The position numbers and the translations under genes are program-made. DNA of 64,000 nt from Planctomycetota bacterium (GTDB taxonomy: Bacteria > Planctomycetota > MHYJ01 > WSZJ01): the NCBI GenBank assembly GCA_038060895.1, contig JBBTCT010000002.1, positions 1-64,000 of the forward strand. The letters are read 5' to 3'. The notes under the pieces were generated by a model. The model searched no databases. It was not told the origin of the DNA and saw nothing but the letters and a program-made list of their open reading frames with translations. Shown piece after piece: positions 48,517 to 57,709 of this stretch (its first letter is position 1; each line of letters starts with the position of its first letter).

Positions 48517-49575
48517 TTAATCCACGAACTCGATCAGCCGCTCCGATTTCACGCGGACTTCGCCCACGATCGCCGAGTGCGGAAACCCGTTTTTCACGAG
48601 GTCGCGCACGAGCGCGTCGGCGTGGACGGCCTTGACGCTGAAGAGCAGTCCCCCGGAGGTCTGCGGGTCGAACATGATGTCTTCGAGCGGCTTGCGGACG
48701 CCGGCGGCCGTCCGGTACTTCGGGCCCAGCCATTCGCGGTTCGAGACGTCACCGCGCGTCTTCTGGCCCTTGGCCGCGAATTTCTCCGCTTCCGGCAGAA
48801 TCGGGACCTTCGAAGTCCGGATCACGATCGTCACACCCGAGGCTTCCGCCATCCCGGCGCCGTGACCCGCCAGCGCAAAACCGGTGATGTCCGTCGCCGC
48901 GTGGATTTCCTTCCCCTCCGCGGCCGCGACGCCGCCGGCGTTCAGCTGCTCCATCTGCGCAATGACTTCCTTCGCGTCCTCCTCGCTCATCTTCCGCGCC
49001 TTCAGCGCCGTCGTCAGGATCCCCGTTCCCAGCCGCTTCGACAGCACGAGCACGTCCCCCGCCTTTGCCGCCGCGTTCGTCCAGATCCTGTCCGGGTGCA
49101 CCAGCCCCGTCACCGCCGCCCCGAACTTCAGCTCCTGGTCCGTGACGCTATGCCCGCCCAGAAGCGCGCACTTGGCCTCCACGTACTTGTCATTCCCGCC
49201 CTGGAGGATGTCATGAAGCACTTCGTGCCCCAGCACGTCCATCGGGTAGCACAGGATGTTCAGCGCATTGATCGGCCGTCCGCCCATCGCGTAGACGTCC
49301 GACAGCGCGTTAGCGATCGCGATCCGCCCGTACGACCGCGGGTCATCGACGATCGGCGTGAAAAAATCCACCGTCTGCACGAGCGCCGTCTGCGCGTCCA
49401 GTCGATACACGCCCGCATCGTCGAACGTCCCCGCGTTCACGAGGACGTTCGCGTCGGTCGGCGCCGTCAGCCCTTCCAGGGCTTTGTGCAGGTCCGCCGG
49501 ACCCAGTTTCGACGCTCAGCCGGCGCAGCTGGACATGTCTGTCAGCCGCGGGCGGGCCTTGCTGAAAAGGGCCAT
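48517..49575 (-). CDS. selD: Selenophosphate synthetase, selenocysteine-containing (UGA codon 20)
   Basis: AAGGAGG RBS, then MALFSKARPRLTDMSSCAG-U-ASKLGP in frame with DDAGVY, TVDFFTP, ANALSDVYAMGG, TDITGF, DPQTSGGLL. TGA at 49516-49518 sits at the catalytic Cys/Sec position. Confidence 0.95.
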
Positions 49576-52643: not shown

Positions 52644-54155
52644 TCATCGCTCTTCCCGCTTCGCCACCCGCAGCTTCAGGTCGCGGCCGAAGGCCTTGCG
52701 GAAGAGATCGGCCCGCCGTGCGGCGGTGTAGACCTCCAGTTCGGGATCGGAGGTCGCCCGGATCTCGAGCGTGACGTCTCCTCCCTCGGGAATCAGCCGG
52801 ATGTCGTCAATGAGCGCCGCATGGCTCCTGTCGAGGCCATCAGCCACCCGCAGAATGGCGCTCAGCAGATCGACGCGCCGGCGCTGCCCCTTTCCGAGCC
52901 TGGAATAACCCTCGTGGTCGGGGCGGGGAAGCGATCCCCGGTGGTAGCGCGCGACGAGCGCGATCAGGAGGCGGTCTTCATCGGAGAATCCCTCGATCGC
53001 GCCGTTCATGATCAGGTAATAGGCGTGCTTGTGGTGTTTCTCGGCGCTGATCCAGTACCCGGCGTCATGCAGCAGCGAAGCGTATTCGAGGATCTCGCGG
53101 TCGCCGGGGCTGAGGCGGTGAAGCGGCGCGAGGTCGTCGAACATGCGGAGCGAGAGGCGGGTCGTGTGGGTTGCGTGGAGGTCGAGCGCGCCGAGTCGGC
53201 GGGCGAGGACGTGGACGCTTCGGCGGCGGGGGTCGGCGATTTCGTCCTCGCGGATCGAGAGCCGTGCGGAATTGCGCGCCGCGTAGTCGGCGACGACGCC
53301 CTCGCGGAGCGCGCGGTCGCACGGAATGAGTTCCTCGAGGTCTGCCTCTTCCATGAAGACGCGGACGACCAGCGATCCGGGGCCGATCGTGTCGGCCCGC
53401 GCTTCTCCCACGGGGCCGAGCCCTGCCAGTTCCTTGCGCGGCGAGGCGAGCAGGCGGTGAGACAGGTCTTCGAGCGGCTCGCGACGGATGGTCTCTCCCT
53501 CGCCACGCACGCCGAGGAGCTTGGCGAGGGTCAGGATTGTCCCGCTGGTACCGAACACGGACGTCGGCGCGCGGCGCTTCACGTCCCTGGCGACCGGCTT
53601 GAGTTCCCCGCGGACGTGGTCTTCCATGTCTCCGCGGTCCTTCGGCCGCGGAAATTTTTCCGCGAGCCGCAGCACGCCGAGTTTCAGGCTCTTCACGAAC
53701 GCAGGTTTTTCCCCCTCCCCGACGATCACTTCCGCGCTTCCGCCGCCAATGTCGATGACGCCGATCCGGCCGGAATCCGGCGGCAGCCCTTCGCGCACGC
53801 CGGCATAAATCAGCCGCCCCTCTTCCTCTCCCGACACGACTCGCACCGCAAGCCGCGCCTCTTTCTCGACCCGTTTCACGAACTCCCCGCGGTTCCGCGC
53901 GTCCCGGACCGCTGACGTCGCCACCGCCAGCACCGCTTCCACCCCCTGCGCTTCGGCGATCGCGCGAAATCGCCGCAGGACCGCGATGGCGCGATCCATG
54001 TCGGCGACGGGGATCGATCCGCTGCGAAAGGTCGCGCGGCCGAGCTGGAGCATTTCCTTCGAGCGGTCCAGCACTTCGCGGATGCCGGGCGCGAAGAGCC
54101 GCGAGACGACGAGGTGGACGCTGTTGGCGCCGATGTCGATGGCAGCGACTTTCAT
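52644..54155 (-). CDS. ppx: Exopolyphosphatase Ppx/GppA
   Basis: AAIDIGANS, ATSAVRDA.N, DIGGGSAE, LREG, C-terminal HD domain (LLHDAG...HHKH). Confidence 0.95.
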   Translation of the reverse strand: MKVAAIDIGANSVHLVVSRLFAPGIREVLDRSKEMLQLGRATFRSGSIPVADMDRAIAVLRRFRAIAEAQGVEAVLAVATSAVRDARNRGEFVKRVEKEARLAVRVVSGEEEGRLIYAGVREGLPPDSGRIGVIDIGGGSAEVIVGEGEKPAFVKSLKLGVLRLAEKFPRPKDRGDMEDHVRGELKPVARDVKRRAPTSVFGTSGTILTLAKLLGVRGEGETIRREPLEDLSHRLLASPRKELAGLGPVGEARADTIGPGSLVVRVFMEEADLEELIPCDRALREGVVADYAARNSARLSIREDEIADPRRRSVHVLARRLGALDLHATHTTRLSLRMFDDLAPLHRLSPGDREILEYASLLHDAGYWISAEKHHKHAYYLIMNGAIEGFSDEDRLLIALVARYHRGSLPRPDHEGYSRLGKGQRRRVDLLSAILRVADGLDRSHAALIDDIRLIPEGGDVTLEIRATSDPELEVYTAARRADLFRKAFGRDLKLRVAKREER

Positions 54156-54255
54156 GGGGGTGGAGAGGGTATCCGGGGAGTGTTGGGGTTGGGTAAAGAA
54201 CAGGGAAAGTCGGGGCGAAGAGCGCACATTCTAGGAAGGGACTGCCCGAAACCGG

Positions 54256-54469: not shown

Positions 54470-55693
54470 CTATCTCCAGCCATACCCCCATATCGACGCC
54501 GGCGCCACGCGCTCCGCCGGCGTCTCCCCCGCGAGCCGCAGCAGATGCGCCATCGGCGCTTCCCCGAGGTCGTCCGGACGGGCGTTGTACTGCGTGCCGC
54601 CCCAGCGCGTCCCTGCCGCGATCATCTCGAACTCGACGAAGCGTTCTTTTGCGAAATCCCACGTCGCGGTCCCGAGAATCCGCGCGTCGAACCCGCGCTT
54701 CTGGTCGTTCGCGGTCGGGTCGAAGCCGTTTACGCGCCACTTGCCGACGGCGGTCGCTTTCGTTTTCCCGGCGAAGCGAATCCGCGCGCGGCCATCCTTC
54801 ACTTCGTCCACGATTGCCGCCATTTCCGCCGTCGCGATCTCCGCTTCCTGCCACGGGTAGGTCTGGCCGCGGACGTTGTCGACGAAATGAAAACGTGCGA
54901 GGCGGAGGACGAGGTCGCGGGGGACGTCGTAAAGCGCGCCCTCCTCGATCGACTCCGGGAGAAAGCGGCGCGCTTCCTCCCTGCGGAACCACGCATAGTC
55001 CAGGTTCCACGCGTCGCGAACGGGTTCGTTGCGGGGGAGGTCCCGGGACCAGTCCTTGAGCACGAGCCCGTCGGCCGGATAGAGGCGTTCCCAGCGAGTG
55101 CGTCCGCCGGGATCGGCAGCCAGCGCTTCTTTGCTGAGCCGCTCTTCAGGCTTGAGTTCTTTCCACCGCGTCAGCGCCTTCTCCATCATTCCGGACATTG
55201 CCCCTGCGTTCGTGGTGTTGATCGACGCGAGGAGCACGCCATTGGGGGCGCAGGCGTAGATTCCCTGCCGCGTGCTCGTCGGTTTCGTGCGTCCCGCGTA
55301 GTGCCCCTGCTCGGCGACCTTCCGGAACAGGTCGGCCTCGGGTCCTTTGACCATTTGCAGGTGACCAACCTCGTCCGCACACGCCACGAACTCCTTCGCC
55401 AGCTCCTGCACTCTCGCATCGCCCCAGACGGACCGCCGGGCGGCAACGCCGTTGTTTCAGGTGCAGGCGAGCGGGTGGCCGTTCATCGCCCAGAGTAGCA
55501 CGGGCTTGTCCGCTTTCTGCGCCTCGACGACAGCGTCCCAGAACGAGGCCCGCCAGTCGACCGCCGTCCAGCGGAGCTCGTCGGGCGCCGGCAGGACGTG
55601 GTCGCGGATCTTCGCAAAGGTCTCGTCGGTGAGTTCCTGCGCCCCGAGCGGCGCGGCAAGCAGCAGGGTCAGGGCGATGGATGCGCGGCGCAT
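54470..55693 (-). CDS. Secreted thioredoxin-fold selenoprotein, CxU motif (SelN-like)
   Basis: ORFs 55457-55753 and 54470-55411 share a frame and are joined across one TGA (55457-55459): KPVLLWAMNGHPLACT-U-NNGVAARRSVWGDARVQELAKEFV. Signal peptide and SECIS-like hairpin present. Confidence 0.8.
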
Positions 55694-55718
55694 TTGTCCC
55701 ATGATAGCCGCCGCTCGC

Positions 55719-57599
55719 TCACTTTCCCGCTTCGAGCTGTTTCCACTCTTCATACAAGTCCTCGCTCTTCTTCTTGAGCCCCACCTTCTCCTTCTCGAGC
55801 TCGTTCAGCTTCCGACGGTTCGTCGCGATCTCCGGCTCGCATTGCTTCTTCGTCACGTCCTCGACCTGGCGCTCGAGCAGCGTGATCTCCTCCTGGATGC
55901 GCTCGATCCGCCGCCAGCGCCGCCGCGCGTCCTTGTGTTCCTCCTGCGCGACCGCCTGCGGCGGCGGAGGAGGCGGCTTCGACGGCTGCGAGGAAGCGGC
56001 GCCCGCGCGCTGCGCCCGCTTCTCCATCACGCCCGTGTAGTCCGTAGGGTAACTCACGACGTGCCCGTCCTCGATCGCGAGGATCCGGTCGCACACGCGG
56101 TCGAGGAAGTAGCGGTCGTGCGAAATCGTGATGATCGTGCCGGGGTACCCGTCGAGCGCTTCCTCCACGGCCTGGCGCGAAGGAATGTCGAGGTGGTTGG
56201 TGGGTTCGTCGAGGAAGAGCGTGTTGGGCCGGTTCAGGAGAAGCTTGGCGAGCACGACGCGCGACTTTTCGCCGCCGGAGAGCGTTCCCACGATCCGGTG
56301 CACGTCGTCGGCCGGGAAGAGGAAGAGCGCGAGCCAGGACTGCATCTGGCCGCGGGTCATGGTGAGGTCGACGGACCAGATCTCGTCCATGACCGACTTC
56401 GAGAGGTTCAACTCGCCCAGGTTCTGGTCGTAGTAGCCCGGCTCGACGGAAGCGCCCAGGATCGCTTCGCCGCTGTCCGGCTTCTCGCGCCCCAGCAGGA
56501 TCTTGAAGAGCGTCGTCTTGCCGGACCCATTGGGCCCGATGAGGCCGACGCGCTCGCCGCGTTCGATCGTGAAGGAGACATCGCTGAAGAGTTTGTGGTC
56601 GCCGTAGGCCTTCGAGACCCGCTTGGTGACGATGGCCGACATCGCGCTCTTGTGCACCGGCCCGAACCGGACGCGCAGCGCATGCGCGGGTCCGCCGGGG
56701 CGGTCGAGCCGCTCGAGCCTCTCGAGTCGCCGCTTGCGCCCCTTCGCCTGCCGCGCGCGCTGGCCGGCGCCGAAGCGACGGATGTACTCCTCGGTCTTTG
56801 CGATGTGGTCCTGCTGCTTCGCGAACGCGACGCGCGCCGCCTCGGCGCGCTCTTCCTTGAGCTCGACGAAATCGCTGTAGCTCCCGACGTACGCCGCGCA
56901 CTTCCCGTTCTCGACCTCGACGGTGTGCGTGGTGACGCGGTCGAGGAAGTACCGGTCGTGCGAGACGACGATGACGGCGCCCGGGAATCCGTTCAGGTAG
57001 TCCTCGAGCCACTCGATCCCGACGATGTCGATGTGGTTCGTGGGCTCGTCGAGAAGCAGGAGGCTCGGCTTCACCAGCAGTTCGCGCGCCAGCGCCGCGC
57101 GGCTCCGCTCGCCGCCGCTCATCGTCGCGACGCTCTTGTGCAGGTCGTCGTCGTCGAACCCGAGCCCGTGCGCCACGACCTTGAGCTCCGTCTCGTACTC
57201 GTACCCGCCGCCCGACTCGTACTCGTGCTGCAGGTTTCCCCACTCTTCCAGCAGCTCCGGCGTCGACGCCGACTCCATCTCGTGCGCCACCCGCTCCATC
57301 TCGCTGTGCAGCCGCAGCAGATTCTCGAACGGCTCCAGCAGCGCTTCCTCCAGCGTCGCCGCCCCGCCGAGCTGGTCCGTCTGCCGCACGTAACCGAGCC
57401 GCGAGCCCCGCGCGAGCTGGATGTCGCCCCAGTCGGCTTCGATTTCCCGGGCGAGGATTTTCAGAAGCGTCGTCTTCCCCGCGCCGTTAGCGCCGACGAG
57501 GCCGACACGCTGGCCCGCGTCGACCTGGAAGTCGACGTTGTCGAGGACCACCTTTCCGGGGTAGGCCTTGGTGACTCCGTTGAGGACGGCTACGGGCAT
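55719..57599 (-). CDS. ABC-F family ATPase
   Basis: Two ABC cassettes (GANGAGKTT/MSGGE/LDEPTNH and GPNGSGKTT/LSGGE), no TM segments, C-terminal coiled coil. Confidence 0.96.
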   Translation of the reverse strand: MPVAVLNGVTKAYPGKVVLDNVDFQVDAGQRVGLVGANGAGKTTLLKILAREIEADWGDIQLARGSRLGYVRQTDQLGGAATLEEALLEPFENLLRLHSEMERVAHEMESASTPELLEEWGNLQHEYESGGGYEYETELKVVAHGLGFDDDDLHKSVATMSGGERSRAALARELLVKPSLLLLDEPTNHIDIVGIEWLEDYLNGFPGAVIVVSHDRYFLDRVTTHTVEVENGKCAAYVGSYSDFVELKEERAEAARVAFAKQQDHIAKTEEYIRRFGAGQRARQAKGRKRRLERLERLDRPGGPAHALRVRFGPVHKSAMSAIVTKRVSKAYGDHKLFSDVSFTIERGERVGLIGPNGSGKTTLFKILLGREKPDSGEAILGASVEPGYYDQNLGELNLSKSVMDEIWSVDLTMTRGQMQSWLALFLFPADDVHRIVGTLSGGEKSRVVLAKLLLNRPNTLFLDEPTNHLDIPSRQAVEEALDGYPGTIITISHDRYFLDRVCDRILAIEDGHVVSYPTDYTGVMEKRAQRAGAASSQPSKPPPPPPQAVAQEEHKDARRRWRRIERIQEEITLLERQVEDVTKKQCEPEIATNRRKLNELEKEKVGLKKKSEDLYEEWKQLEAGK

Positions 57600-57709
57600 G
57601 GGGGGCGGATTATAGTGCGGGGAGAGGTTGACGGGGGGTTGTGGACGGTAAAGGCCAGGACAAATGCAAAATCCCAACTCAAACTCCAAATTCCAAGGGG
57701 TCATCGCCC

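Follow-up and report, generated by a model that had tools for sequence, protein, structure and literature searches.

Is an in-frame TGA on the minus strand of a planctomycete contig the end of a gene, or a codon for selenocysteine (Sec)? The question is raised by a locus in the window, that is, the whole 64,000-nucleotide (nt) stretch analyzed here (positions 1 to 64,000 of contig JBBTCT010000002.1, assembly GCA_038060895.1, from a Planctomycetota bacterium), in which a sequence-only reading had proposed a hidden, exported selenoprotein resembling selenoprotein N (SelN). Our analysis indicates that positions 54470-55693 are likely to encode one exported two-domain selenoprotein, for which we propose the redox mechanism described below.

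A Single TGA Interrupts One Reading Frame

The minus strand from 54470 to 55753 forms one frame, in which the only internal stop is the TGA at 55457-55459. Translation table 11 yields two open reading frames (ORFs) in this frame, of 98 aa (55457-55753) and 313 aa (54470-55411), and only 15 sense codons lie between the TGA and the downstream ORF. Read-through starting at the ATG at 55693 yields a protein of 407 aa, with Sec at position 79 of the precursor and position 61 of the mature protein (U61); coordinates and length agree with the earlier description of two same-frame ORFs joined by one TGA into about 407 aa. The read-through translation of the frame gives ...KPVLLWAMNGHPLACT-U-NNGVAARRSVW..., and the segment around the TGA reads ...SFWDAVVEAQKADKPVLLWAMNGHPLACT-U-NNGVAARRSVW, the segment quoted in that description being reproduced letter for letter.

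54470..55693, minus strand: selenoprotein coding sequence (CDS), 407 codons plus a TAG stop, with a single in-frame TGA
55457..55459, minus strand: UGA very likely recoded as Sec, from the TGA in the homologous column, the Cys homologues and the Sec machinery

The UGA Is Conserved and Has Cysteine Counterparts

The family to which this protein belongs is large. A search with the read-through protein against 400 evenly drawn Planctomycetota genomes and the window's own genome (401 in total) found a match in 126 of them. Among the 150 matches listed (41 further matches lie outside this list), 141 contain an in-frame TGA, either exactly one (136 matches), two (2 matches), or one together with a TAG (3 matches); the other nine have no internal stop. 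When 30 loci were fetched from this search, the TGA fell in the same alignment column in all 30, in 29 by pattern and in one (L030, A-A-G-U-D-N) by inspection, within the motif LLWAMNGHPL(A/G)C(T/V)-U-NNG. A scan of species-representative genomes matched at least 598 stretches, of which at least 562 were confirmed; the 80 best loci among the latter all carry TGA at the site (76 by pattern, 4 by inspection). The 30 and the 80 loci have at least two members in common. They show neither TAA nor TAG at the Sec column, and in none of the loci examined do the two halves occur separately; either occurrence had been named in the sequence-only reading as evidence that would speak against it.

Cys homologues, for which that reading had recommended a search, do exist. 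The column holds Cys in the natural proteins P0009, P0028, P0042, P0070 and P0097 (S/T-T-C), in loci L131 and L132 (Q-A-C and C-N-C), and in P0171 and P0234 (C-T-C). Moreover, conservation runs across the TGA: the 76 residues around it show a mean column identity of 66%, the C-terminal 220 residues one of 46%, and N, N, G and R (given as N60, N61, G62 and R66), located after the TGA and ahead of the first possible restart codon, do not vary.

Public annotation treats the TGA as a true stop, in which case the locus would hold two genes or a pseudogene, the downstream ORF starting from the GTG at 55411. We regard this as hardly credible, given that TGA, and never TAA or TAG, stands in the same column of every locus of both sets, that the four invariant residues fall within the 15 codons preceding the first restart codon, that full-length Cys forms of the family exist, and that the AlphaFold2 model described below needs both sides of the TGA to complete one thioredoxin fold.

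The Genome Encodes the Sec Machinery and the Gene Contains a SECIS-Like Hairpin

The Sec system of the genome is complete. It comprises selA (541 bits), selB (344 bits with its neighboring stretch, above the cut-off), selD (364 bits) and a tRNA-Sec (71.7 bits) with anticodon tca according to ARAGORN, i.e., UCA. The selD gene lies in the window itself, at 48517-49575 on the minus strand, about 6 kb from the selenoprotein gene, and itself encodes a selenoprotein, with an in-frame TGA at 49516-49518 (S-S-C-A-G-U-A-S-K) and, about 12-27 nt after this UGA, a stem comparable to the one described next, with a loop beginning GG. A Shine-Dalgarno-like AAGGAGG precedes the selD ATG.

Downstream of the UGA of the selenoprotein gene, a hairpin that could act as a selenocysteine insertion sequence (SECIS) was found. 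The sequence-only reading had placed it at 55418-55447 with its loop at +23; it extends slightly further, and its apical loop, G-GUC-C, indeed begins 23 nt after the UGA.

55416..55449, minus strand: SECIS-like hairpin inside the CDS, 14 pairs with two 1x1 interruptions

It is reminiscent of the E. coli fdhF-type SECIS, which we take to be likewise an intragenic hairpin about 10 nt after the UGA with a small apical loop starting with G at 23 nt, and it differs from that element in sequence and in having a stem with two 1x1 mismatches. Since an RNAalifold consensus on 29 relatives kept only 3 pairs, explicit structures were counted instead. In the same relatives, the inner 7-pair helix has 71.9% of its cells paired, against 32-51% when its 3′ side is slid, and the full 14-pair structure 65.3%, against 36-44% when the 3′ partners are slid. 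The innermost pair alternates between G-C (12) and A-U (5), and where the Arg codon CGG becomes the Gln codon CAG, the opposite codon ends in U. Cells changed on both sides number 29, compared with 18.6 +/- 3.0 in shuffles, and none of 500 shuffles reached 29. Besides the poor RNAalifold consensus, three points tell against a conserved element: the hairpin energy is no better than that of shuffled sequence (z -0.86 and -1.10) in this G+C-rich region; the structure that was counted derives from the window's own sequence, which favors it, and the sequences compared are kin; and the hairpin shares codons with the conserved peptide A-R-R-S-V-W, which could account for much of its conservation. A scan of 55200-55700 with Rfam gave no SECIS hit. 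Taken together, the comparison lends moderate support to a conserved SECIS-like element.

These data also bear on whether the UGA might be decoded as something other than Sec, by near-cognate read-through (Trp, Cys or Arg) or by local reassignment. Database translations P0007, P0130 and P0128 show W or R at the position, as would be expected in that case; they probably reflect gene callers using another code. Such decoding is very improbable, in that TGA also ends genes in the same genomes (10 of 30 family genes terminate in TGA, as does the ABC-F gene upstream in the window), a complete Sec system is present and required by selD itself, the natural replacement in the column is Cys, a hallmark of Sec sites, and the hairpin stands at the expected distance. 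Because the TGA is conserved, Cys homologues exist, sequence is conserved on both sides, and both the hairpin and the Sec machinery are present, the standard comparative criteria for a selenoprotein are satisfied, and we conclude that the UGA very likely specifies Sec. The proposal of a hidden selenoprotein is thus borne out by comparison of sequences, both halves being conserved and contiguous.

Contigs from RNA libraries give a weak hint of expression, weak because such libraries can contain DNA. Run X8, an aquifer metatranscriptome, contains a 183-nt contig that agrees with 55408-55590 with zero mismatches and spans the TGA, and two more RNA-library contigs lie in the gene (54627-54833 and 54786-54936). 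DNA contigs from other sequencing runs cover the gene piecewise, none bridging the TGA by at least 31 nt on both sides.

The Protein Is Predicted to Be Exported and to Contain Two Domains

The ATG at 55693 is the likely start, because the closest orthologue likewise begins MRR right before its hydrophobic stretch; an alternative ATG lies at 55702. From the former, the N terminus reads MRRASIALTLLLAAPLGA, followed by QELTD, and cleavage before QELTD would leave a mature protein of 389 residues, in which the Sec site reads A-C-T-U-N-N-G. A comparable hydrophobic N-terminal segment is present in 96 of 110 relatives' loci, as counted by a crude hydrophobicity and start-codon script that is heuristic and was run on overlapping sets.

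55640..55693, minus strand: predicted signal peptide MRRASIALTLLLAAPLGA, from the translation; Sec-type (export), without lipobox, with predicted cleavage before QELTD
55145..55576, minus strand: predicted thioredoxin-fold domain, mature residues 22-165, with Sec between strand 47-52 and helix 62-70
55463..55465, minus strand: Cys59 (mature numbering), at position -2 from Sec, which may act as the resolving residue in a C-x-U selenenylsulfide
54524..55072, minus strand: predicted C-terminal beta-rich domain, mature residues ~190-372, with long antiparallel strands

AlphaFold2, run on the mature protein with a 33-sequence alignment, gave a predicted local distance difference test (pLDDT) of 94.7 and a predicted template-modeling score (pTM) of 0.92. 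The N-terminal domain is confidently modeled as a thioredoxin fold whose core is preceded by an extra N-terminal helical segment. Its best match among solved structures is a DsbD-like exported domain (3f9u_B, scoring 12.5, with a root-mean-square deviation of 2.4 over 118 aligned residues), followed by AGR3 (3ph9, 11.3), a Thermus thioredoxin (2lst, 11.1), 3ira (10.2), DsbH (2ju5, 9.7) and UAS domains (8.6 and 8.2). In the model, we infer that U61 occupies the place of the attacking Cys of thioredoxins, at the N-terminal end of the first helix.

The C-terminal domain is tightly packed in the model and, modeled alone, reached a pLDDT of 90.1; its invariant polar motifs are R-D, N-x-D, D-N-V-R-G-Q, G-x-R-W-G and N-x-R. 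Foldseek found no solved structure at E <= 0.001 for either the whole model or this domain. Two candidates were rejected: LmcA as a fold match (probability 0.6 but a template-modeling score of ~0.25, too weak), and Nef, the sole match of a PDB profile search with family alignment A3 (E 0.026), as spurious. The translation and the model thus agree with the architecture first described from the sequence, in which a signal peptide precedes a thioredoxin-like N-terminal domain and a large, uncharacterized C-terminal one.

A Periplasmic Redox Function Is Proposed

Based on this architecture, we propose the following model. SelB carrying Sec-tRNA would bind the hairpin, leading to insertion of Sec at the UGA, and the protein would then leave the cytoplasm via the Sec export pathway. 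In the periplasm, the U61 selenolate may attack an oxidized substrate (a disulfide, a sulfenic acid or a peroxide), and Cys59 would usually resolve the adduct as a C-x-U selenenylsulfide, while the conserved polar face of the beta domain might bind the substrate or a partner. Cys stands at position -2 of the Sec in 28 of the 30 and 75 of the 80 loci, the other residues being H, A, Q or R, and some Cys forms having S or T.

The protein would then be a periplasmic selenol/thiol oxidoreductase or a redox-sensing module, and we lean, with some reserve, toward a redox-active oxidoreductase or redox sensor. Because the module, in its Cys form, is the outer part of membrane Ser/Thr kinases in some relatives, it could also serve as a redox or ligand sensor outside the membrane. 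P0139 (1541 aa) and P0171 (840 aa) consist of a Ser/Thr Pkinase domain and a membrane helix followed C-terminally by the whole two-domain module; the Sec-column motif of P0171 is C-T-C, while P0139 has Kelch repeats and an Asp at the site.

Several observations count against this redox proposal. U61 is put at the attacking-Cys position because of the secondary-structure order alone. Two of the 30 and five of the 80 loci, as well as the S/T-T-C forms, have no Cys at -2, so the C-x-U selenenylsulfide is not obligatory; since Cys59 is not universal, a one-residue (Sec-only) mechanism using an external thiol must be possible. In five of the seven loci without TGA that were examined, the residue is lost, these paralogues carrying D, S/P or V, and the scaffold therefore has non-redox uses too. 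Scans of the selenoprotein with Pfam and NCBIfam returned no family (with Pfam even at E <= 1), and the 30 family loci share no gene neighborhood beyond the closest relative, which leaves no clue to a substrate.

The main functional rival is that the C-x-U site and the upstream M-N-G-H-P form a site that binds or senses a metal or metalloid (Cu, Hg, As or Se species), like that of Sco-type copper proteins with a thioredoxin fold, and not the active site of a disulfide or peroxide reductase. Soft metals are typically bound by Met, His, Cys and Sec, and a ten-residue stretch of this protein contains the invariant M52, G54 and H55 and the almost invariant C59 and U61. The use of the module as the outer domain of sensor kinases would suit a metal sensor as well, and Table 1 of PMC13188914 contains several metal-linked selenoproteins with C-U or C-x-U motifs. 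However, nothing resembling the Sco, HMA or MerP families turned up in the Pfam and NCBIfam scans, genes for metal transport or resistance do not adjoin the gene in the window, and the 30 loci show no conserved neighborhood, making a metal site improbable.

Kinship with Selenoprotein N Is Doubtful

The likeness to human SELENON that had been proposed from the sequence held up only in part: a protein-language-model feature search ranks a SelN cluster first and paralogues with an adjacent C-U pair exist, but the motif, membrane anchor, EF-hand and Sec position differ. Were the family a specific bacterial relative of SELENON, with common ancestry beyond the generic thioredoxin fold, the protein would be a luminal or periplasmic Sec reductase that repairs over-oxidized Cys of a membrane partner. 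This is a tentative possibility, and we rate as unlikely the broader proposal that the family and its C-U paralogues are bacterial kin of animal SelN sharing both ancestry and a reductase or redox-sensing mechanism.

The feature search, made in the ESM Atlas with the Cys form P0009, placed a 'Selenoprotein N' cluster (98% Eukaryota, mostly Chordata) first of 7.7 million, above the family's own Planctomycetota clusters, with a score of 0.91 and 194 of 256 features. Such a score comes without alignment or E-value, however, and counts as a lead according to the Atlas notes, which state that 0.9 is attained by 4-10 of every 100 shuffled proteins; when the search was made with just the C-terminal part of P0009, the top three were only bacterial hypothetical clusters. 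The nearest solved folds of the thioredoxin domain include the endoplasmic reticulum (ER)-resident AGR2/AGR3/ERp19 and UAS domains, and two distant paralogues in the same genome have a C-U pair like the Cys-Sec pair of SelN. SelN is eukaryotic and has its SECIS in the 3′ untranslated region, unlike the intragenic hairpin here. The family protein also lacks a membrane anchor and an EF-hand (no EF-hand hit in Pfam) and has a cleavable signal peptide instead. Both proteins have Sec beside Cys in a thioredoxin-like domain outside the cytosol, as described for SelN in passages of PMC12839072 and PMC8148124; the reductase role of SelN is a proposed one. The same passages give SelN an SCUG motif, a membrane anchor, an EF-hand and a Sec near the C terminus. 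According to those of PMC12839072, its motif is S-C-U-G, compared with C-T-U-N here, and its Sec lies at position 458 of ~590, compared with 61 of 389 mature residues here.

The N-terminal 76-aa profile and the C-terminal profile each had six hits among longer proteins, none of them SelN, a weak result as the lists are crowded by long proteins; the top 150 of an exhaustive HMMER search were filled by family fragments, so that SelN was unable to appear. A literature search for SelN with Planctomycet* returned PMC4807772 alone, in which SelN occurs only within a cited title, and a search for SelenoN with bacterial homolog returned nothing relevant. If the kinship were true, a widespread periplasmic module of a Sec-thioredoxin and a beta domain would be akin to the ER enzyme mutated in SEPN1-related myopathies, and a soluble bacterial protein modeled with high confidence could stand in for a human disease enzyme whose chemistry and structure are poorly defined.

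Comparison with Known Thioredoxin-Like Families

The nearest known structural class, that of Thioredoxin_7, DsbD-gamma, DsbH and AGR-ERp19 (3f9u, 1vrs, 2ju5, 3ph9 and 1sen), shares with our protein an exported or luminal location and a redox residue between the first strand and the first helix. It differs in its C-x-x-C motif, as opposed to C-x-U-x-x-G with Sec in place of Cys, and in having neither the added N-terminal helical segment nor the fused 200-residue beta domain. The Thioredoxin_7 hidden Markov model (PF13899) gives a faint signal in relatives (E ~0.1, 12.9-13.4 bits against a gathering threshold of 27) and no hit at E <= 1 in the selenoprotein itself.

A 2026 review (PMC13188914) lists, in its Table 1, 119 prokaryotic selenoprotein families and subfamilies with models, the thioredoxin-like ones including VPGUxxT (NF041382/NF041383), Trx7/PDZ (NF041199), DsbG-like and thiol:disulfide interchange proteins. 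As in our family, these have Sec in a thioredoxin-like fold, an in-frame UGA and an intragenic hairpin, and many are exported; unlike it, they have U-x-x-T/C or C-x-x-U motifs, and none has this C-terminal domain. With the VPGUxxT and Trx7/PDZ models, relatives score 11-14 bits against cut-offs of 275-350, and the selenoprotein itself has no score. No entry among the 119 combines the C-x-U-x-x-G motif with this architecture, and neither Planctomycetes nor exported selenoproteins are named in those words anywhere in the review. A published description of the family, or of bacterial relatives of SelN, was not found, in a comparison that left outside Supplementary Table S9 of PMC4807772, which lists selenoprotein candidates of two planctomycete genomes. 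The family is thus uncatalogued among the thioredoxin-fold bacterial selenoproteins with an intragenic SECIS, and its size, its C-x-U-x-x-G site and a second domain without family assignment are notable traits. It would add to these a predicted exported Sec enzyme in which that site is unusual, and a module that also serves sensor kinases as their outer part.

The Family Is Split by Gene Callers and Extends Beyond Planctomycetota

The earlier suggestion that such genes are routinely annotated as two proved accurate. Of the best 120 database relatives, 7 extend over at least 87% of the protein; the other 113 correspond just to the portion downstream of the TGA, which makes up 67-76% of it. The exhaustive HMMER search, whose profile spanned the 76 residues around the TGA, yielded 1475 clusters (E <= 0.001), and 138 of the best 150 are short ORFs that end at profile positions 56-58, just before U, the other 12 running through. 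Because gene calls split at the UGA and no Pfam or NCBIfam model exists, counts of selenoproteins in these phyla come out too low, and a pair of fragments is carried forward in place of one protein.

The 80 best loci belong to several classes of Planctomycetota, to Armatimonadota (Fimbriimonadia and Chthonomonas), to one metagenome-assembled genome (MAG) of Verrucomicrobiota and to one MAG labeled Glaciecola. In a crude check, four Armatimonadota loci (L055, L056, L068 and L115) kept the TGA but lacked a clear signal peptide; their starts may have been set wrongly, or the proteins are cytoplasmic.

The window's own genome contains a second full copy of the family on a different contig (C9:294792-296015, minus strand; L137), with 48% identity, A-C-T-TGA-N-N-G at the site and the same hairpin core. 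It also contains two distant paralogues that have a signal peptide and are laid out alike at the N terminus; in both, a TGA falls in the aligned column and Cys immediately precedes U. One, of 494 aa (C36:74334-75815, plus strand; L138:1335-2816), reads ...DERC-U-VFAG and aligns with the family profile in hhalign with probability 96.8 (E 2.7e-10, 269 columns); two orthologues were found in 200 sampled genomes, both with the TGA. The other, of 379 aa (on C20; L139:2367-3503, minus strand), reads ...GHC-U-ATAT, with an hhalign probability of 57.9 (E 1e-4). Both probably represent additional, uncatalogued families of selenoproteins within one superfamily.

Additional gene arrangements were observed in relatives. 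At locus L130 of genome G305, a gene for a kinase-module protein is separated by ~4 kb from a family member that bears the TGA and likewise includes fused Kelch-like repeats. Among the hits of the profile searches among longer proteins, P0277 (720 aa) and P0280 (728 aa) each join the portion downstream of the TGA to a PQQ-like beta-propeller or an M20/M28 peptidase domain within one called protein, as either real fusions or gene-calling run-ons, and P0281 looks like a frameshifted translation.

Flanking Genes and an Rfam Match Within the Gene

An Rfam match to the Pseudomonas small RNA P37 at 55541-55598 on the minus strand, inside the CDS, was rejected (27.7 bits against a gathering threshold of 50, E 0.0027); it is most likely a chance match to a G+C-rich hairpin. 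The selenoprotein gene is flanked on the same strand by an ABC-F ATPase gene upstream (55722-57704, terminating in a TGA at 55719-55721) and a Ppx/GppA phosphatase gene downstream (52647-54227), both of which look unrelated to it.

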